A stretch of DNA of 64,000 nucleotides, from the NCBI GenBank assembly GCA_017864995.1, contig GCA_017864995.1_4097.1. The stretch is one strand, 5' to 3'. Source of the DNA: a phage. Of this stretch, positions 1 through 8,685 are shown one piece after another. A program made the translations under genes and the position numbers. Position 1 is the stretch's first letter, and every line of letters starts with the position of its first letter. The notes beneath the pieces were generated by a model that was given only the letters and a program-made list of their open reading frames with translations, was not told the origin of the DNA and did not search any database.

Positions 1-35
1 AAAAAAAAAGCCAGTATCAAGTACTGGCATTCAAT

Positions 36-1202
36 TTATTGTAAAAAGGACATATCTACTTCTGTATAATTAAGAACGTTCTGTCCAGAAATACCACCCA
101 TTACTACTATTGCAAGGCCACAATAATATAATTTTCCAGTATCCGTAAGTATAAGTGATCCAGATGAACTGCGTACCAAATCACACGAACTATTAAAAGA
201 AGTATAAGAAGGAGTATAGGAGTACTGATTATTATTATTACCAACACCTAATTGCCCAAACCCATTCGATCCAGAAGCATATAGAACTTCATCTGCTTTG
301 ACAATATGTGATGCCATGTTACCAACACAAGTATATAGAGTATAAACTCCTGAACTCAATAATGTCGGAGTTTTATATTGTATATCTGTAGATGTAGAAG
401 TACCACCTGTACCAAATTCGTTCCCATATTGTGCACCGAACTGTTTACCACAAGCGTACAAATTATTATCCGATTTGATAAAAAATGTACTCTGATAACT
501 TACATTAAAATCTATAACATCCGAAGAAATCATCGTCACCCCAGTAATAGAAGTTTGATTACCCGTGCCCAACTGGTAGTAATAGTTAAAACCACAACCC
601 CATAAAGTATTATCTTCTCGCAAATAAATGTTACCAACTGCCTTTTTAACCGAAGTTATAGTATCTACTCTTTTGAATGTGTTAAAAGAATTAATGTTTG
701 TGCCATCACCAAATGATGATATGTTCGATATATTGTTAGTTCCACAACAATACAATGTACCATCGTTTGTTATCAAATTCACCTTCATATCATAAAAACT
801 ACTCATGTATTTTATATCAGAAACATTAATACCACTTGATGTTATCCACGTAGTACAGTCCGTCCACAAAGTTTTTCTATCAGTTACACCAGTGAATGCC
901 TTCGTGTTACCAGTGATAAAAACTTTTCCAGTACCTTTCTCTTCATACAATTGACAATCACTACTGTTATCTTCCAATAGAACTCGTTTAACATTCTCCG
1001 CACAAAGAATAAATTTACTCGATGTTACACCTGTACCAGTACCCCAATTCGCCGCAGAAGATGCATACAACTTATCAGTATAAGTATCATGAAGATACAT
1101 AGAATCACTGGAATATATTTTAAAACGCCCAGAGTTGGTAGGTGCTTCATTCCCATAATCAAACATTCTAACAAAAGGTAACATATTTCCTCCTTTATTC
1201 AT
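36..1202 (-). CDS. RCC1-like repeat (beta-propeller) protein
   Basis: 388-aa ORF, only convincing minus-strand gene; repeated LYACG/LWGCG/LYCCG/LYYCG and G-x-G-QLG-x-G units; alternative start M7 at 1184 preceded by AAAGGAGG. Confidence 0.6.
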   Translation of the reverse strand: MNKGGNMLPFVRMFDYGNEAPTNSGRFKIYSSDSMYLHDTYTDKLYASSAANWGTGTGVTSSKFILCAENVKRVLLEDNSSDCQLYEEKGTGKVFITGNTKAFTGVTDRKTLWTDCTTWITSSGINVSDIKYMSSFYDMKVNLITNDGTLYCCGTNNISNISSFGDGTNINSFNTFKRVDTITSVKKAVGNIYLREDNTLWGCGFNYYYQLGTGNQTSITGVTMISSDVIDFNVSYQSTFFIKSDNNLYACGKQFGAQYGNEFGTGGTSTSTDIQYKTPTLLSSGVYTLYTCVGNMASHIVKADEVLYASGSNGFGQLGVGNNNNQYSYTPSYTSFNSSCDLVRSSSGSLILTDTGKLYYCGLAIVVMGGISGQNVLNYTEVDMSFLQ

Positions 1203-1232
1203 TATATCATATTTACCCCATAAACAAAACCC

Positions 1233-1261
1233 TTGACATCCTTTCAGTACTGGTGTACTAT
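1233..1261 (+). promoter_or_regulatory. sigma70-like promoter for Fam1 array
   Basis: TTGACA-17nt-TACTAT, then AAGGAG RBS and ATG at 1287. Confidence 0.45.
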
Positions 1262-1286
1262 AGAAGGAATATAAGGAGAACTGTAC

Positions 1287-1514
1287 ATGACAACTACACT
1301 TAAGTACTACATTAATACTCTAAATGAACTAGAGTACGCGAAGTTTCTCGCGGATAGTTCGTGGCTAATTGAGCTAAAAACACATAACAGTACTGGATGT
1401 AACCTTATGCTGAACAATGCACTTGATACCCTTGTAGTGAGTATTTTACACAGCAACATCTGCGGGGATAGAAACAAACAATTATCAAAAATCTTAGTAC
1501 TGGTAGCTCTATGA
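1287..1514 (+). CDS. Fam1 small protein
   Basis: 75 aa; LKYYINTL N-term; first gene of tandem array. Confidence 0.5.
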   Translation: MTTTLKYYINTLNELEYAKFLADSSWLIELKTHNSTGCNLMLNNALDTLVVSILHSNICGDRNKQLSKILVLVAL

Positions 1515-1723
1515 ACACTATGAACATTGAACAGTACTACATTGATGCACTACCAACAAAAGGTCTACGAGAAAGCCTACTGTATACACAAAATAATTAT
1601 ATAAACCTCAAACATTGTCCTAAACTCTTGAACTCGTACAGGAATAATAAAATAAGAAATGCTGTACAAGGGGTAGAAAGTATGCAATACTATTACATCC
1701 TAACCCTTTTAATCGAACACTAA
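1511..1723 (+). CDS. Fam1 small protein
   Basis: MNTMNIEQYYIDAL; ATGA stop/start overlap with upstream gene. Confidence 0.55.
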   Translation: MNTMNIEQYYIDALPTKGLRESLLYTQNNYINLKHCPKLLNSYRNNKIRNAVQGVESMQYYYILTLLIEH

Positions 1724-1724
1724 T

Positions 1725-1910
1725 ATGTATAAAGAATTCTACTGTAGTAAGCTGCACAAACAATACAGAGATTCATTTCCCAATGAACCTATGGATATGA
1801 ATAGTCCCTTTTATAAATTTGACTTCAGACTGGAGACACGTTATGCAATAGAACATCAATTTCCTGAAACTAAGTACTTATCTATCATGAACCTCATCTT
1901 TAAGTTCTAA
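1725..1910 (+). CDS. Fam1 small protein
   Basis: MYKEFYCSKL; C-term MNLIFKF. Confidence 0.55.
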   Translation: MYKEFYCSKLHKQYRDSFPNEPMDMNSPFYKFDFRLETRYAIEHQFPETKYLSIMNLIFKF

Positions 1911-1921
1911 AAGAGTACTAT

Positions 1922-2134
1922 ATGAAAACAATGAACATACACCAGTACTACTTAGATATTCTCCCTAAAGATGTACAGTTCATCCTTAAACAAGAATACA
2001 GTACTTTAAAAAACCTTAAAAGAACCGCACCGAATGTATTAATCCTGCACCAAGAAAATGTAGTTGATAATATTCTACAAGGTGTACCAGGGACCGAGTA
2101 CTTTAACATAATCAGGCTAATTACATTACCATGA
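1922..2134 (+). CDS. Fam1 small protein
   Basis: MKTMNIHQYYLDIL; paralog of 1511. Confidence 0.55.
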   Translation: MKTMNIHQYYLDILPKDVQFILKQEYSTLKNLKRTAPNVLILHQENVVDNILQGVPGTEYFNIIRLITLP

Positions 2135-2316
2135 ATCATATATTATACTATTACCAAAATCTATCCGACAGGGACAAGTACACCCACAACTCCAATGTAT
2201 GGTACTACAAACGCGGTAGTATAAGAGACAAACAACATTACTTCTGTATTGCTATAAAAGAAGCACTAACAACTAAGTACACGTACAGAGCAGTACTGAA
2301 ACTTATTGATATGTAA
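2131..2316 (+). CDS. Fam1 small protein
   Basis: MNHILYYYQNL; C-term AVLKLIDM. Confidence 0.5.
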   Translation: MNHILYYYQNLSDRDKYTHNSNVWYYKRGSIRDKQHYFCIAIKEALTTKYTYRAVLKLIDM

Positions 2317-2326
2317 AGAGAATACT

Positions 2327-2509
2327 ATGAGCATTGAATTGTACTTAAGTAAATTACAGCCTGGCGATAGATTCATCTACAATAAGTTCGAATTCAACTA
2401 CAAGAACGGGAGCAACAAATATCGTCGAGGATACCTATATACAAGCACAAGAGATGCACAAAACGAAAAGTACACATACAGAGAAGTACTTAAACTAATC
2501 TCTATTTGA
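2327..2509 (+). CDS. Fam1 small protein
   Basis: start moved to internal Met MSIELYLSKL (track 2306); C-term EVLKLISI. Confidence 0.5.
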   Translation: MSIELYLSKLQPGDRFIYNKFEFNYKNGSNKYRRGYLYTSTRDAQNEKYTYREVLKLISI

Positions 2510-2517
2510 GGTAATAT

Positions 2518-2703
2518 ATGAATACATTTGAGTACTATACAAATAAACTATCTATGCCTGAAAGATCTCACCTCTATGTGTGGAGAAATGCGTATAAAAG
2601 CGGCAATAAACGTATACAAAGAAATTCCCTTACAGTGTGTACAAATTTAATTAAAGCAGAGTACCGCACATATATTGAAGTACTCAAACTGATAGCAATC
2701 TAA
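2518..2703 (+). CDS. Fam1 small protein
   Basis: MNTFEYYTNKL; C-term EVLKLIAI. Confidence 0.55.
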   Translation: MNTFEYYTNKLSMPERSHLYVWRNAYKSGNKRIQRNSLTVCTNLIKAEYRTYIEVLKLIAI

Positions 2704-2711
2704 GGTACTCT

Positions 2712-2891
2712 ATGCAAGAATTCTATATCTATAACCTCCAGCACAAAGATAGATACAACTATAATAAATTCCAAAGGTACTACACAGTCGGGAACAAAAG
2801 AGATAAAAAACGTTATCTACTCTCGTGTACAGTAGAAGCACAAAACGAAAAGTACACGTACAGAGAAGTACTTAAACTAATCTCAATCTAA
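2712..2891 (+). CDS. Fam1 small protein (59 aa, below track cutoff)
   Basis: hand-translated MQEFYIYNL...EVLKLISI; fills gap in array. Confidence 0.5.
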   Translation: MQEFYIYNLQHKDRYNYNKFQRYYTVGNKRDKKRYLLSCTVEAQNEKYTYREVLKLISI

Positions 2892-2898
2892 GGTAGAC

Positions 2899-3087
2899 AT
2901 GAACACTTTTGAGTACTACTTCAATAAACTAAACCACATAGAACAAAGTATGCACAACTCATTTATTCAGCACCATCAATCATCTGCACATGGAATTAAA
3001 AATATATCGATTGAGATTATCACTACCCGTGTACTGTCATCTGAACGTTATATGTATATTGATGTACTGAAACTCATCTCTATGTAA
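2899..3087 (+). CDS. Fam1 small protein
   Basis: MNTFEYYFNKL; C-term DVLKLISM. Confidence 0.55.
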   Translation: MNTFEYYFNKLNHIEQSMHNSFIQHHQSSAHGIKNISIEIITTRVLSSERYMYIDVLKLISM

Positions 3088-3095
3088 GGAATAAT

Positions 3096-3275
3096 ATGCA
3101 AGAATACTATATAGAACACATAAGCATTAAAGACCGTTTCATGTACGACACCTTCGTGAAGTACTACAACCTGGCAACTAACAGTACTAAAAATATTAAT
3201 CTCAATAGCTGCATTCATCACGCACTAACAAAAGATAATCCCTTCAGGGAAATCCTCGCACTAGCATCTGTATAA
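3096..3275 (+). CDS. Fam1 small protein (59 aa, below track cutoff)
   Basis: hand-translated MQEYYIEHISIKD...; fills gap in array. Confidence 0.5.
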   Translation: MQEYYIEHISIKDRFMYDTFVKYYNLATNSTKNINLNSCIHHALTKDNPFREILALASV

Positions 3276-3286
3276 AGGAAAACCAA

Positions 3287-3946
3287 ATGAAACTTAATGC
3301 ACACAGCAAACAATACCTTAAGCACTTTAAGTACCTCAACAGTATTCAAGCAGAATCTTTTACACCAGTATATACTTACGACCCGAATGTACTAAAGAAA
3401 CGAAATAAAAAGAAAAAATCCAGAAATGTTCTCGTATCTAAGAACCTCAAATCGTACTTGAAGAAAAATAATATAGCTCTTGCTTTTATTAATATCTATA
3501 ATACTGATTTAAAAGTATTGAGTACTAATACCAGCACAAAAGCACTAAAGAATGCATCTATCTATATACACATGGATAATATCCCGTGCACTATAATTCT
3601 ATCTTTCGGGAATGTATACTTCTTCGGGAATTGTAATAGCACCCATGATATCAGTACTGCACAATTCCAAATCGGAGATATGTACTGCATGGGTTCAGAA
3701 AAAATACACGATAACATGCACTTCTTCCAAAAGCAACGTACTAACGAAACTGATACAGTACTGCAATTCCTCAAAGAACTAGAACACAAAGAATTATCCG
3801 ACGAAGAAGAATTCATGTACAGTACTGTAATCGATAATCCAGGACTCTATAAAAACGCGTACAAACTAACAAAACATGTACAGGAACTTATCAGTACTGA
3901 TAAGAAATTTCATCACCTCATTACGTATATTACAAACTATGTATAA
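3287..3946 (+). CDS. hypothetical protein (219 aa) embedded in Fam1 array
   Basis: long ORF, RBS AAAGGA upstream; Lys-rich N-terminal region; no family motif. Confidence 0.5.
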   Translation: MKLNAHSKQYLKHFKYLNSIQAESFTPVYTYDPNVLKKRNKKKKSRNVLVSKNLKSYLKKNNIALAFINIYNTDLKVLSTNTSTKALKNASIYIHMDNIPCTIILSFGNVYFFGNCNSTHDISTAQFQIGDMYCMGSEKIHDNMHFFQKQRTNETDTVLQFLKELEHKELSDEEEFMYSTVIDNPGLYKNAYKLTKHVQELISTDKKFHHLITYITNYV

Positions 3947-4124
3947 AGAATACTACATAGATAAACTCCCAATGCATCTACAATACCTTGTACCAACAGA
4001 ACCATTGGGTATAGAAAAAGACTACGAAAAAGACTACTTCGTTAAGTGCACTAAATCCTCGATAGATATTGACGACTATAATCGAGTACTGTATCACATC
4101 ATTTTACTAATATATAAGTACTAA
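3939..4124 (+). CDS. Fam1 small protein
   Basis: start at internal Met MYKEYYIDKLPMHL (track 3876); ATGTATAA overlap with upstream stop. Confidence 0.55.
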   Translation: MYKEYYIDKLPMHLQYLVPTEPLGIEKDYEKDYFVKCTKSSIDIDDYNRVLYHIILLIYKY

Positions 4125-4125
4125 T

Positions 4126-4305
4126 ATGCACAAACATAAAGAATTCTACTTGTCGTACCTTAATTCCGATATAGTAACATCCAATACCTTCAGTACTAAA
4201 ATTATCTATAATGAATTAATGAAAGAATGTATTAAAGGTGCTATTAACCCTAAAGATACGTATGACTTGTACTATGCAGTACTAACCCTTGTTTTCACGA
4301 AATAA
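4126..4305 (+). CDS. Fam1 small protein (59 aa, below track cutoff)
   Basis: hand-translated MHKHKEFYLSYL... Confidence 0.5.
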   Translation: MHKHKEFYLSYLNSDIVTSNTFSTKIIYNELMKECIKGAINPKDTYDLYYAVLTLVFTK

Positions 4306-4313
4306 CACATAAT

Positions 4314-4502
4314 ATGAATAACCACAAAGAATACTACATAGAGAAACTCCCAATGTATCTCCAGAGCCAGATACCAAACGTTGCATTGGGCATAAAAGAT
4401 GACGCAAAAACAATGTTCCAAGAATGTACTAAGTACACCCTAATGTACGAGGATAGAACATATAAACTGTATTACATCCTCGCCCTAATATTCAAGTACT
4501 AA
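4314..4502 (+). CDS. Fam1 small protein
   Basis: MNNHKEYYIEKLPMYL; C-term YYILALIFKY. Confidence 0.55.
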   Translation: MNNHKEYYIEKLPMYLQSQIPNVALGIKDDAKTMFQECTKYTLMYEDRTYKLYYILALIFKY

Positions 4503-4512
4503 AGAGAACAAT

Positions 4513-4701
4513 ATGAATAACCACAAAGAATACTACACACAATTTCTCCCCAGTATTTTTGAACACTACGCCAGATATAAAGTCCCCCTGGATAACGATT
4601 TGGCAGTACTGGGATTCAATAATTGCATAGAACGCAGTATAGAAAATAGTAGTAGCTATGACCAATTATATAACACTATCCTACTTATATTCAGGTACTA
4701 A
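4513..4701 (+). CDS. Fam1 small protein
   Basis: MNNHKEYYTQFL; C-term ILLIFRY. Confidence 0.55.
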   Translation: MNNHKEYYTQFLPSIFEHYARYKVPLDNDLAVLGFNNCIERSIENSSSYDQLYNTILLIFRY

Positions 4702-4702
4702 T

Positions 4703-4891
4703 ATGCATAAAGAATACTACACAAAATATTTCCCAATGTACCTCAGTACTAATCTATTAGATAAACCTCGCGGTATCAATGCTCAAAACGATAAAGTGTA
4801 CTTTACTATGTGCACTAAAGCATGTATACTAGATTTTGATAGCTATCATCGAGTACTGTATCATACACTGTACCTAGCTTTCGTGTACTAA
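4703..4891 (+). CDS. Fam1 small protein
   Basis: start at internal Met MHKEYYTKYFPMYL (track 4658). Confidence 0.55.
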   Translation: MHKEYYTKYFPMYLSTNLLDKPRGINAQNDKVYFTMCTKACILDFDSYHRVLYHTLYLAFVY

Positions 4892-4901
4892 AGAGGCCAA
4901 T

Positions 4902-5108
4902 ATGAACGAACAGAAAGAATTTTACACCAAACACCTCAGTGCATCAGAACAAATGTTTCTAAGGAGTGTATCACCTTTACGTTTAGATACACCTCACGCC
5001 AGAGATTGCTTTAATAATTGTATACGTATTACTCTAGAAGCTTTAGAAAACAATAACAAAAATATTCAGTACTCAGGCGTAATGGGACTAATATTCTTCT
5101 ATGAATAA
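4902..5108 (+). CDS. Fam1 small protein
   Basis: MNEQKEFYTKHLSASEQMFL. Confidence 0.55.
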   Translation: MNEQKEFYTKHLSASEQMFLRSVSPLRLDTPHARDCFNNCIRITLEALENNNKNIQYSGVMGLIFFYE

Positions 5109-5289
5109 CAAAGAATTCTACTTAAACCATCTGGAACTAAACTCCCAAATGCTTATACCACTAAACCCAATAGATATCAAGGATAAGAAAAATACCAAAC
5201 AATTCCACTATCACACACTATGTGCTATCAACCCAGATTATAATACATATAAACTGTACTACATTCTCGCCCTAATATATAGGTACTAA
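5101..5289 (+). CDS. Fam1 small protein
   Basis: MNNKEFYLNHL; C-term ALIYRY. Confidence 0.55.
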   Translation: MNNKEFYLNHLELNSQMLIPLNPIDIKDKKNTKQFHYHTLCAINPDYNTYKLYYILALIYRY

Positions 5290-5290
5290 C

Positions 5291-5476
5291 ATGCATAGAG
5301 AATACTACACACAATTTGTTAAAGGGAACTACAAACACGCCGTCCCCGTAAACCCCTTAAATTCTAATGACCCAAGTACTATATTCTTGTTCCATGACGC
5401 AATACGTACAGTACTCAATACTAAAGATGAACAGGTGCAGTACGTATTCTTACTATTACTTATATACAGACACTAA
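5291..5476 (+). CDS. Fam1 small protein
   Basis: MHREYYTQFV; C-term LLLIYRH. Confidence 0.55.
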   Translation: MHREYYTQFVKGNYKHAVPVNPLNSNDPSTIFLFHDAIRTVLNTKDEQVQYVFLLLLIYRH

Positions 5477-5481
5477 CTAAT

Positions 5482-5691
5482 ATGAATAAAGAACATAAAG
5501 AATTCTACTCCAAACACCTCAGCCCCACAGAACAAATGTTTCTAAGGACTACAGCACCTTTAAGTACTGATACATATTTCGGCAGAGTATGCTACAATAA
5601 TTGTATTCAAATGACTTTAAACGCAAACGACAATAATAACAGTACTAATATGTACTCCGGCATCATAGGTATACTATTTCTATATGAATAA
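5482..5691 (+). CDS. Fam1 small protein
   Basis: MNKEHKEFYSKHLSPTEQMFL; close paralog of 4902. Confidence 0.55.
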   Translation: MNKEHKEFYSKHLSPTEQMFLRTTAPLSTDTYFGRVCYNNCIQMTLNANDNNNSTNMYSGIIGILFLYE

Positions 5692-5866
5692 AGAACATAA
5701 AGACTTCTACATAAGAAAACTAACATTCGTCCCCGTAAAAATATATAAAGAATGCGACCCAAGATTATACCTATGGCACTTCAATGAGTGCATAAAAGAT
5801 TCTATATACCCTAAGAACTATAAAGAACATTTGTTCTCAGTACTAACACTAGTACTATCATATTAA
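5684..5866 (+). CDS. Fam1 small protein
   Basis: MNKEHKDFYIRKL. Confidence 0.55.
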   Translation: MNKEHKDFYIRKLTFVPVKIYKECDPRLYLWHFNECIKDSIYPKNYKEHLFSVLTLVLSY

Positions 5867-5879
5867 TAGAGATAATACT

Positions 5880-6062
5880 ATGTATAAAGACTTCTATATA
5901 AGTAAACTCAAAGAGAATGAACAAGCATGGGTTAACAATTTAATCCCCCTGGCAATGACTCAATACGAATTTAATATGTGTACAAAGATTGTTTTAACTA
6001 CTAATGATATCTCTAATACGTACTACTTCCTATTAAGAGTACTATATGGTACTTTGAAATAA
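5880..6062 (+). CDS. Fam1 small protein
   Basis: MYKDFYISKLKENEQAWV. Confidence 0.55.
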   Translation: MYKDFYISKLKENEQAWVNNLIPLAMTQYEFNMCTKIVLTTNDISNTYYFLLRVLYGTLK

Positions 6063-6073
6063 TAAGGTATACT

Positions 6074-6280
6074 ATGCAGAACATAAAAAACTATAAAGAG
6101 TACTATATAAGTAAACTACCACCGACTGACCAAGCATGGATTAGATCTATAATAGTACTGGCATTTAATAGATATGCATTTAACAGATGTACCGAGATTG
6201 CTATAGACCCTTATAATATTAAAGAGAATGTACAGCATAATCAGTACTACTATATGTTAATGCTTATATATAGGAAGTAA
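6074..6280 (+). CDS. Fam1 small protein
   Basis: MQNIKNYKEYYISKLPPTDQAWI; last member. Confidence 0.55.
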   Translation: MQNIKNYKEYYISKLPPTDQAWIRSIIVLAFNRYAFNRCTEIAIDPYNIKENVQHNQYYYMLMLIYRK

Positions 6281-6289
6281 TTCAACATA

Positions 6290-8230
6290 TAGACAGGGGA
6301 AGCTCCGCAGGGAAAGCATTGGACAGGCTTTAACATATGTTATATATGTTAAAATTCAGCCTGGACAAATGCGATCACTAGGATTCTCCCCAGGCTAAAC
6401 CCCGTAATCATATGTAGTCATAAGTAATCATATATAAACATTTATATGAGCACCGTAGAATCACAGAATGATTATATATGATTCAGTACTGATTATTATA
6501 GACAAGATTACTCAAGAATGCTAGGGAAGGATTCAGTACTGCCCCAAAAGTATTCAGTACTGAAGGTGTCGATATGCCACTAAGTAGGCAGAGGAAGTCT
6601 GCCGTACTTTGTAGTTTCCAAGCTCCTTTTCCAATTTGCAAATTACATCAAATGTAATCAAAAGTAATCACGCAATGATTAGTACTGAATTATTACTTTC
6701 ACCTTAATTACAATTACCCTTTTACCCTTCGGGGTAAAATTCAATTACCCCTTGAGGCTCCAGCAAAAAGTTGGTTAGTACTCCATCCTAAATCTCGATC
6801 CTAAAAATTTTGGAGTACCTATGAAATAAAAGTTGGATCTTCGAAAGTTGAAATTTACGTTGGGACGTTTATGATTTGTGGGATATAATGATGTTTGTAG
6901 TCGGGTAGTTCTCAAGAATATCAGTACTGAAAGATGAAAGAAAGTTATTGACTTTATGATTCAGTACTGTATAATGTTCTACATAGGGTGATGAGTTGCT
7001 GCGAACAATTCATTTACTCTACCTCCTGTCGTGAGACAGTACAGAAAAGATAGTTCCTCCTGTGGTGGTGGTACATCTTTTTGAACCTCATATGAAAATC
7101 GTAATAACAGTACTGATATTAACAGAATGGTGTCAGTACTGATTTTAATCTAAAGCATTATGCCACCAGCTTGTGCTGGTGGATTCCCTCTAACAGTATT
7201 CAGTACTACATGATGGTCTTCATCCTCCTAGGGTAACATAGTGAGGGCTATGATGGCAGTACTGAATACTCCCTTTCAAAAGATAGATCTATGGTATAGT
7301 ACTGACGGATTTTGGGTGTAGTTACCCTGGATGGATTTTGGACGTAGATATGTCTAGCCCTCCAGAAGTCTGGAAGTAAAGATGGCTATCCATCTAGACG
7401 GCTAAACGGCTAGATTTCTGGATGGCTGGATGGCTAGACGTTTGGACGGCTAAACGGCTAGATGGTTACACGTCTGGAAGTATAGACGGCTAAATCAAAA
7501 TTTTATTTTGTTTTTTCCAATAGTTCCCCTACCGCGTGGGGATAGTTTCCCCGCAGTATCTGGTGTTAGATTTTTCTGAATCTGGAATCATTATCTTATA
7601 AACTGGGGGCAATGTCAACGACCTGGACGGATATTTTTAAAAATTTTTTCAGTACTGAATTTTGGGCGTAACTATGCACCCGGTGGGCTTGAGTCTTTCT
7701 CGACTTGATGGAACTATTATACAGTACTGAAAAAATAAAGCAATACCCTGGAAGCAAAAAAGTTTTAATTAATTTGCTTGCTATCCTGGGCCGGACTATG
7801 GTACTATATTTCAGTACTGAGAAAGTGCGTTTACCTGCTAGGGTGCGGGAGTGTATCCTTTTTTTATATCTTGAATTTTGGGCGTAATTCCGCACCCTCT
7901 GGGGTTTCCGCTTTCTCGCGTCTATGTAGTAATTATACGCTTTTTCAGGATCAAGTCAATACCTAAAAACAAAATAATTGAAAATAATTTAACGCGTTTA
8001 AACTGCCCGTAACGCCCTGGAATGATTGGAATGGTGCAAATGTATAGCTTAGGTGTACTAATGCGTTAGAATGCGTCTGAGGCCGTTTTACGGGGTATAG
8101 GGATGATTTAGTGGATTGATTCAGTACTGAATAATAGTACTACTATATAGAAAGATAGTTCCCCTGGATGGTTGCAGTACTGAATGATAGTTTCCCTATA
8201 TAGAAAGAAAACTATTTTAAAAGTATTTGT
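6290..8230. other. ~2 kb non-coding hub with dense palindromes and repeats
   Basis: no RBS-supported ORF; many CAGTACTG palindromes; hairpins incl. TTTTACCC-ttcg-GGGTAAAA at 6720-6739; track ORFs here rejected. Confidence 0.5.
7360..7500. repeat. iteron-like direct repeats (GGCTA core)
   Basis: about 8 copies of r-GA-y-GGCTA-r incl. ACGGCTAAACGGCTAGAT x2 and GTCTGGAAGTA-A/T-AGA-y-GGCTA x2. Confidence 0.5.
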
Positions 8231-8239
8231 AGAAAGTAC

Positions 8240-8267
8240 TTGCACCGTACTGATAAAAGCGTATAAT
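8240..8267 (+). promoter_or_regulatory. class I promoter (TTGCAC-16-TATAAT, then GTTTTACATC)
   Basis: near-consensus hexamers; same cassette recurs upstream of many genes. Confidence 0.6.
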
Positions 8268-8281
8268 GTTTTACATCGAGA

Positions 8282-8298
8282 GCGGGAACTCTTCCCGC
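8282..8298 (+). promoter_or_regulatory. 5'-UTR hairpin GCGGGAA-ctc-TTCCCGC
   Basis: perfect 7-bp inverted repeat ~15 nt after -10; no U-run; RBS follows. Confidence 0.5.
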
Positions 8299-8322
8299 TA
8301 CACTTTAAGAGAGATTAAAACG

Positions 8323-8685
8323 ATGGCAACTCAAATCACCAAAATTATTGCTAACCTGGTTAACTTCCGCGACGAGATGAAAGATCTTCCGGCGGTAACG
8401 GTTAAAACTCACATTGACGCATACCGCGAACTGATTAAAATGCTGCCGCTTAAGCGTGAACAATACGCCGCTACCGTGATGCTTGATGCGATGATCCATA
8501 AGATGATCTCCCATGATTTAACGATGGTTTATCAGTACATGGGCGAAAATTTCGCGGTGTGTAGTACGCCAGTACCAGGGATGGCAACAACTGAGGAATT
8601 GCACGGTTTAAATTTAAAACAAGATGCATGGGATAATATGCCTCGTTTCCTGGTATGGGCTGACAGTGGCAAAATTTACAAATAA
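8323..8685 (+). CDS. hypothetical protein (120 aa)
   Basis: start MATQITK after RBS TAAGAGAG (track start 8266 lies in hairpin). Confidence 0.6.
   Translation: MATQITKIIANLVNFRDEMKDLPAVTVKTHIDAYRELIKMLPLKREQYAATVMLDAMIHKMISHDLTMVYQYMGENFAVCSTPVPGMATTEELHGLNLKQDAWDNMPRFLVWADSGKIYK

Follow-up and report, generated by a model that had tools for sequence, protein, structure and literature searches.

The window, as we call the whole stretch of DNA analysed here, comprises 64,000 nucleotides (nt) of phage sequence (GenBank assembly GCA_017864995.1, contig GCA_017864995.1_4097.1). Near its start, at positions 1287-6280, the plus strand carries an array of 22 small genes of 59-75 amino acids (aa) and one gene of 219 aa, g11 (table 1). 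All lie on the same strand, and the intergenic spacing ranges only from -8 to +13 nt. To what kind of phage does this array belong? By megablast (42 phage records), positions 1-8000 have as their nearest relatives the Escherichia phages BF17, Ecwhy_1, WPEC5 and fEgEco12, at 96-97% identity, while 121Q, PBECO4 and several Salmonella phages are about 90% identical. The matched relatives are jumbo myoviruses of 320-386 kilobases (kb) belonging to the genus Asteriusvirus. Judged by this similarity, the window is DNA of an Asteriusvirus jumbo coliphage.

Packing, coding status and transcription of the array

Could such a row of short open reading frames (ORFs) arise by chance? Some 97.5% of the plus strand of the array is covered by 24 ORFs that begin with ATG and are at least 55 aa long; the minus strand holds only three. 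In 300 dinucleotide-preserving shuffles the mean was 0.74 such ORFs and 3% coverage, and the maximum was four ORFs. The packing is far beyond chance. An earlier interpretation made from the letters alone (the sequence-only reading) had named this random-ORF control, and the control bears it out. It had counted about 24 tiny paralogs lying head to tail; the array and its packing stand, but the small genes number 22. The three 59-aa ORFs that it had added by hand translation (g08, g10 and g13) are present in the ORF listing, two as members of subfamily A and one as a member of subfamily B, as defined below. So is every other ORF that it named, the one of 219 aa included, at the coordinates it gave. 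It had described them as missed. They were absent from the ORF track, but only through the effect of a 60-aa cutoff, and both WPEC5 and JP4 are annotated with all of them.

Start codons were set from the family alignment and the annotation of relatives, which for the ORFs 2306-2509, 3876-4124 and 4658-4891 moves the preferred starts to 2327, 3939 and 4703. Gene calling in GenBank is uneven across the array: about 12 of the 23 genes are called in BF17 (L007 5700-10683), about five in the type-species record PBECO4 (L008 5877-9939), and all in WPEC5 and JP4. The uneven annotation in PBECO4 and BF17 makes gene counts and pan-genome comparisons in the genus inconsistent. The coding strand of the array is also low in G and high in C (A 39.7, C 19.4, G 13.9 and T 27.0%; GC skew about -0.2), whereas the plus-strand genes downstream have more G than C. 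This skew probably reflects a protein composition rich in Tyr, Asn, His and Thr and poor in Gly, Ala and Val.

Are the array genes translated, and are they under selection? Orthologues that align without gaps in five phages (WPEC5, JP4, 121Q, SD-15_S21 and G17) have no internal stops and keep all their stop codons. The pooled ratio of non-synonymous to synonymous substitution rates (dN/dS) of the array genes is 0.21-0.43, compared with 0.19-0.34 for the flanking control gene 8266-8685 in the same genomes. Of the 23 starts, 11 have at -18 to -4 a Shine-Dalgarno match that is 4 nt or longer, as against 3.6% of 84 other ATGs in the region. Most of the other starts abut or overlap the preceding stop codon (ATGA, or gaps of -8 or +1), which is the usual arrangement for translational coupling. 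The translation signals that the sequence-only reading had named as a test are thus present as Shine-Dalgarno sites, stop/start overlaps and preserved frames. We conclude from these comparisons that the array genes are protein-coding and under purifying selection, and we hold the anatomy of the array and the coding status of its genes with high confidence. Codon identity is raised at a conserved 5' motif (AAAGAATWCTAC, encoding KE[FY]Y). Since the codons there are two-fold degenerate and favoured, this gives no evidence of selection at the nucleotide level.

How would the array be transcribed? The 84-nt gap between g01 and the divergent RCC1-like gene contains a sigma70-type promoter followed by the sequence AAGGAG. 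The -35 element, the 8-nt palindrome CAGTACTG in the spacer, the -10 element and AAGGAG are all kept in the five phages named above and in the divergent phage JNE01. Within 1287-6280 we detected no terminator-like sites, and promoter-like matches there did not rise above the shuffled expectation. A conserved promoter of sigma70 type and the lack of an internal terminator point to a single operon; since such a promoter is read by the host RNA polymerase, early expression is probable. That the array is one early operon, giving a single polycistronic message of about 5 kb, is on these sequence features the likelier arrangement, though by no means a secure one.

Table 1. Genes of the array and the features that flank it, with positions counted from the first letter of the window.
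Feature	Position	Strand	Description
RCC1-like 'chromosome condensation' gene	36-1202	-	divergent neighbour of the array; paralog type typical of Asteriusvirus
sigma70-type promoter	1233-1261	+	TTGACA-17-TACTAT; 10/12 match; CAGTACTG palindrome in spacer; between divergent RCC1-like gene and g01
g01	1287-1514	+	75 aa; first gene of putative operon; borderline family member; AAGGAG Shine-Dalgarno 5 nt upstream; dN/dS 0.46
g02	1511-1723	+	70 aa; subfamily C; ATGA stop/start overlap with g01
g03	1725-1910	+	61 aa; subfamily B; PHROG 11711 E 2e-15
g04	1922-2134	+	70 aa; subfamily C; blastp against g02 E 1e-11
g05	2131-2316	+	61 aa; subfamily A; dN/dS 0.20
g06	2327-2509	+	60 aa; subfamily A; TTG upstream at 2306; WPEC5 and JP4 annotations start at ATG equivalent to 2327
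g07	2518-2703	+	61 aa; subfamily A; B profile also matches, E 8e-4
g08	2712-2891	+	59 aa; subfamily A; identical ORF annotated in WPEC5 and JP4
g09	2899-3087	+	62 aa; subfamily A
g10	3096-3275	+	59 aa; subfamily A; JNE01 orthologue 56% identical
g11	3287-3946	+	219 aa; PHROG 29152 (function unknown); contains 4 CAGTACTG copies
g12	3939-4124	+	61 aa; subfamily B; 8-nt overlap with g11 stop; PHROG 11711 E 8e-27; AlphaFold pLDDT 91
g13	4126-4305	+	59 aa; subfamily B; PHROG 11711 E 1.4e-6
g14	4314-4502	+	62 aa; subfamily B; partner in paralog recombinant of WPEC5 and JP4
g15	4513-4701	+	62 aa; subfamily B; 121Q protein 100% identical
g16	4703-4891	+	62 aa; subfamily B; ORF reaches upstream to 4658; dN/dS 0.10
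g17	4902-5108	+	68 aa; subfamily B; PHROG 11711 E 3e-12
g18	5101-5289	+	62 aa; subfamily B
g19	5291-5476	+	61 aa; subfamily B; JNE01 orthologue 59% identical
g20	5482-5691	+	69 aa; subfamily B; blastp against g17 E 1e-28
g21	5684-5866	+	60 aa; subfamily B
g22	5880-6062	+	60 aa; subfamily B
g23	6074-6280	+	68 aa; subfamily B; last array gene; PHROG 11711 E 3e-19
terminator-like hairpin	6584-6603	+	first after the array; weak T tract

Relationships, distribution and turnover of the small genes

Are the small genes all members of one family? All-against-all blastp divides them into subfamily A (six genes, g05-g10, 2131-3275), subfamily B (13 genes, g03 and g12-g23) and subfamily C (two genes, g02 and g04), and leaves g01 and the 219-aa g11 outside these groups. 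Proteins of subfamily A begin with E-[YF]-Y...L and end in VLKLIS[IM]; those of subfamily B begin with K-E-[FY]-Y...L and end in L-I-[FY]-[KR]-Y. The terminal motifs of the sequence-only reading are therefore real, but they distinguish subfamilies A and B and are not variants of one. When the profile alignments were enlarged with database homologues (34 A and 90 B sequences), A matched B over its full length (hhalign, 94% probability, E 1e-7) and C matched B colinearly over its whole length (83% probability, E 9e-6). The hidden Markov model (HMM) of B, moreover, picks up the A member g07 among all six-frame ORFs. For g01 the profile matches are weak (E 0.002 with C and 0.013 with B; 0.002-0.05 overall) but full-length and colinear, and it is possibly a very divergent member of the family. 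At the level of sequence profiles, at least 21 of the 22 small genes form one diverged superfamily. The single family (Fam1) first proposed survives in this looser sense, as a superfamily of A, B and C whose members are related only at the profile level and in which g01 is borderline. The same HMM search of six-frame ORFs found no further members elsewhere in the window.

PHROG 11711, an entry of 62 positions and of unknown function, is the same family as subfamily B and says nothing of the tandem organization seen here. It is matched by g03, g12, g13, g14, g17, g19, g21, g22 and g23 (E 8e-27 to 3e-6, about 60 of the 62 positions). Subfamilies A and C fall outside it; g15, g16, g18 and g20 were placed in B by blastp and HMM, outside the PHROG scan. 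No PHROG was matched by g01, g02, g06 or g08 at E<=0.01, nor by g04, g05, g07, g09 or g10 even at E<=1. Profile-profile comparison alone joins A and C to B.

How widely is the family distributed? A word-indexed search of 5.8 billion proteins returned 65 clusters of B type and 33 of A type, and the named clusters come from Asteriusvirus phages of Escherichia and Salmonella or from E. coli assemblies that contain phage contigs of about 350 kb. When 1.84 billion cluster representatives were searched exhaustively by HMM, just 32 matches emerged. One of these, P0105, a protein of 531 aa with seven matched stretches, was rejected as spurious, being a low-complexity repeat protein. The five most divergent representatives were traced, and all reside in the Asteriusvirus phages JNE01, Turkey5 or A4. 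As far as these searches reach, the family appears confined to Asteriusvirus.

How does the array change within the genus? An HMM census of nine genomes counted between 15 and 22 small genes. Their order does not vary: g01, C, B, C or B, two to six A genes, g11 and nine to 12 B genes. Paralogs within one genome are only 28-58% identical, yet most have 121Q orthologues at 78-100% identity, and it follows that the copies are old and individually maintained rather than homogenized. The comparison with JNE01 is of a different kind. In that phage the product of the flanking gene 8266-8685 keeps 90.6% identity, whereas array members are 30-59% identical, so that the array constitutes a fast-diverging island between conserved flanks. 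Gene 8266-8685 is itself mosaic, being 93% identical in nucleotide sequence to the otherwise divergent JNE01 and only 90.7% identical to BF17, which matches the array best.

Paralogs have also recombined. In WPEC5 the first 50 nt of gene 5622-5813 are identical to g14, after which the sequence follows g12 to its end; in JP4 the bodies of g12 and g14 are exchanged relative to the window. In these recombinants the crossover lies in the stretch that codes for the conserved motif KEYYI[DE]KLPM. From these sequence comparisons we conclude that the array changes by duplication, loss and homologous recombination between paralogs. What characterizes a tandem multigene family, variation in copy number (15-22 in the nine genomes) and recombinant copies (WPEC5 and JP4), is thus found here.

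What of the 219-aa gene? The sequence-only reading had it as an unrelated gene that interrupts the array. It is embedded in the array, but its place at the A/B boundary is kept in nine of nine genomes examined, and its relatedness is undemonstrated either way (E 0.05). Residues 163-213 give hhalign E values of 0.054 against A and 0.2 against B, neither of which is significant, and the C-terminal 55 or so residues have the strings LS-EE-FMYSTVI and HHLITYITNY in common with subfamily A. The AlphaFold model of g11 (predicted local distance difference test score, pLDDT, 39.5) is too poor for comparison. The protein is only 36% identical to its JNE01 counterpart. Four copies of CAGTACTG lie within the 660 nt of g11 (at 3652, 3756, 3820 and 3892), and the 22 small genes, over their combined 4.3 kb, have no more than that. 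In the g11 frame they encode S-T-x or x-V-L, and no clear -35 or -10 elements surround them. They may be there by coincidence, through residues that are conserved, or may serve as internal regulatory sites in front of the B sub-array.

Predicted fold and possible role

If the small genes are maintained, what do their products look like? AlphaFold2, given a 31-sequence alignment, models g12 with a pLDDT of 91.1 and a predicted template modelling score (pTM) of 0.75, as helices at residues 3-7, 12-15, 28-43 and 47-60. The conserved positions of the family (K3, E4, F/Y5, Y6, L10, P22, F34, C37, I/L42 and L57-I58-Y59) are spaced like a core and constitute a hydrophobic core; the positions between them are highly variable. 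On this model the small genes are predicted to encode soluble four-helix proteins. The model has no match in the PDB at E<5 by Foldseek and, in BFVD, matches only family members from Asteriusvirus phages. PDB sequence profiles contain no match for the family, Pfam none for ten window proteins or 31 family members (g01, g02, g04 and g11 were among the proteins searched), and PADLOC none.

What might such proteins do? A conserved core with a variable surface, the retention of many distinct copies and the rapid divergence of the island lead us to suggest a repertoire of binding proteins. Host RNA polymerase would read the array early, from the conserved promoter, as one message, and translation would proceed by Shine-Dalgarno initiation or by termination-reinitiation at overlapping or abutting stop and start codons. 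Each paralog would then be a small binding module built on a common four-helix scaffold, which is the most speculative step, and the set would act as a repertoire against host proteins or anti-phage defence proteins, in host takeover or counter-defence. Such a role would account both for the retention of distinct paralogs and for a divergence of the island that far outpaces that of its flank. We give about even odds (roughly 0.5) to this account as a whole, that is, to a selected, genus-restricted family expressed from an early operon as a host- or defence-binding repertoire. Its last element, that the paralogs are binding modules for host or defence proteins, is by itself a tentative proposal that draws on analogy.

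Several considerations weigh against this account. The fold model is a single-chain prediction for one member. We found nothing similar to the proteins in Pfam, PADLOC or the PDB, nor among annotated viral structures, so that the host- or defence-binding role rests only on the evolutionary pattern and on analogy. The promoter is a match to a consensus, from which we infer the early timing, and we found in the literature no RNA sequencing, ribosome profiling or infected-cell proteomics for any Asteriusvirus. Finally, dN/dS of the array in close relatives is about equal to that of the neighbouring gene; positive selection is consequently not demonstrated.

A more elaborate version of the repertoire, which we regard as doubtful, would make the array a cassette-like collection of inhibitors that share a 60-residue four-helix fold not seen before. 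A different host or defence factor would be neutralized by each paralog, and the 5' motif (AAAGAATWCTAC) would double as a crossover point at which the collection is swapped or resized. If true, bacteriophages would have in it an equivalent of the multigene families that large eukaryotic DNA viruses carry.

Might the small proteins instead belong to the virion or to its assembly, as inner-body or DNA-condensing proteins, or as chaperones or adaptors for the neighbouring RCC1-like family? The array divergently adjoins that family, and in phAPEC6 two of the 11 RCC1-like proteins, gp549 and gp551, are virion-associated (PMC7247149). 121Q shows a bubbling pattern like that of an inner body (PMC5646251), and subfamily A is basic, with an isoelectric point (pI) of 9.4-9.8 in four of its six members. 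The virion mass-spectrometry table of phAPEC6, however, lists none of the tiny proteins, although a protein of 4.66 kDa was detected (PMC7247149). The promoter, moreover, is of sigma70 rather than late type, and the array lies on the strand opposite to the RCC1 genes, whereas fibre chaperones are usually encoded downstream. We consider a virion role unlikely.

The same basic pI of subfamily A, together with its Lys/Arg-rich central segment (YYKxGxKRxK), could suggest small nucleic-acid-binding regulators, histone-like or modulating transcription or translation. The region around the array, moreover, is dense with a repeated palindrome that must have some binding partner. But the pI of subfamily B spans 5.5 to 9.3, no helix-turn-helix or other DNA-binding family was detected in the proteins, and their structural model matches no DNA-binding fold. 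This role, too, seems to us improbable.

Could the array be mere ballast, tandem duplication that fills spare capsid capacity, as in the ratchet idea of Hua et al. (2017), without a specific function? These authors propose that jumbo genomes can grow by tandem duplication and cite an array of more than 30 genes in 121Q (PMC5646251), and in the present array the copy number moves between 15 and 22 at no obvious cost. Ballast, however, would not be expected to show dN/dS of 0.2-0.4 with frames and stops preserved, to keep old paralogs (28-58% identical) each conserved at 78-100% between phages, or to maintain start signals and a promoter conserved across the genus. Neutrality accordingly fits the data poorly, and we give it little credence.

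Least probable is that these are small membrane proteins, peptides of the holin, spanin or superinfection-exclusion kind anchored by the C-terminus, which ends in a hydrophobic stretch of 10-12 residues (LYYILALIFKY, VLKLISI). Averaged over 19 residues, Kyte-Doolittle hydropathy peaks at 1.13 in g01 and does not exceed 0.95 in the 21 demonstrated members, against a usual threshold of about 1.6; the grand average of hydropathy is negative in all the small proteins but g01. The tail is too short to cross a bilayer, and the model places it, at high confidence, as the last helix, buried in a compact bundle whose conserved positions are spaced like a core. The membrane association that the sequence-only reading had raised for these tails is accordingly not borne out.

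How does the array compare with known systems? The host-takeover or early modules of phages (SPO1 gp37-60 and the early regions of T4 and T5) contain many tiny, operon-packed genes behind host-type promoters. The likeness extends to the lack of database homologues and of a virion role; but the genes of those modules are mostly unrelated, whereas here nearly all are paralogs of one fold and the early timing is deduced. Large eukaryotic DNA viruses carry multigene families and gene 'accordions', as in the MGF families of African swine fever virus and the amplification of poxvirus K3L. Common to these and to the present array are tandem paralogs, copy-number differences between isolates, recombination between copies and a fast-diverging island. 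There is no homology, however, and here the host is bacterial and the copies are old and diverged rather than recently amplified. Anti-CRISPR and other anti-defence loci likewise encode small proteins (50-150 aa), often helical and restricted to a lineage, clustered behind a strong early promoter. Typically, though, their genes are unrelated and accompanied by a helix-turn-helix regulator (aca). We detected neither an aca-like regulator nor a match to known defence or anti-defence proteins in Pfam and PADLOC searches of array members, and the 2 kb or so downstream hold no convincing ORF.

Comparable, too, are the tandem arrays of jumbo phages themselves, in 121Q, phage G (PMC5646251) and phAPEC6 (PMC7247149), which belong to the same lineage and arise by the same process of tandem duplication. 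Such arrays are already known. The published array of 121Q consists of over 30 genes that closely resemble one another (Hua et al. 2017, PMC5646251), whereas the present one has 15-22 genes, which are much smaller and much more diverged. Most likely the 121Q array corresponds to another part of the window, 35000-64000 on the plus strand, where about 40 ORFs of 137-214 aa with overlapping ends follow one another without interruption; five that were sampled match solely PHROGs of unknown function. In the literature on Asteriusvirus, PBECO4/121Q, phAPEC6 and jumbo-phage paralogs we found no description of the tiny-gene array, which databases represent solely by one PHROG and by entries named 'hypothetical protein'.

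Hundreds of jumbo-phage genes have no known function, and tandem duplication is regarded as one route by which these genomes grew; the array is a clean and tractable example of it. Phage-therapy studies directed at E. coli and Salmonella make use of the genus Asteriusvirus. If binding to host or defence proteins is borne out for the copies, the locus would supply new small inhibitors in compact form and could serve to model how phages diversify such a repertoire.

Sequence around the array

The RCC1-like beta-propeller genes beside the array belong to an expanded family, with three to five or more consecutive copies in relatives (L001 1-2682, L004 63-7286). The best JNE01 match to the RCC1-like gene of the window is only 24% identical.

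No tRNA genes were found in the window, and no Rfam family matches anywhere in it. The palindrome CAGTACTG occurs 64 times there, compared with 0.71 expected, and is often extended to TTCAGTACTGAA. It is densest at 6.3-27 kb (for example at 6484, 6534, 6555, 6922, 6962, 7108 and 7134). Eleven sites in the window, the array promoter included, have the form TTGAC-N9-CAGTACTG-N3-TANNAT, where 0.05 would be expected. By its placement CAGTACTG is probably a phage-specific promoter element or the binding site of a regulator; we found no description of the motif in the literature.

Directly after the array, about 2 kb (6281-8265) hold 13 copies of CAGTACTG and three terminator-like hairpins. In public records this interval is left empty, or tiny minus-strand ORFs are called in it. 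Its role could be regulatory or origin-like, or it could give rise to non-coding RNAs. Within it, at 7364-7491, lies a repeat with a period of 8 nt (GGCTAGAC / GGCTAAAC / GGATGGCT).

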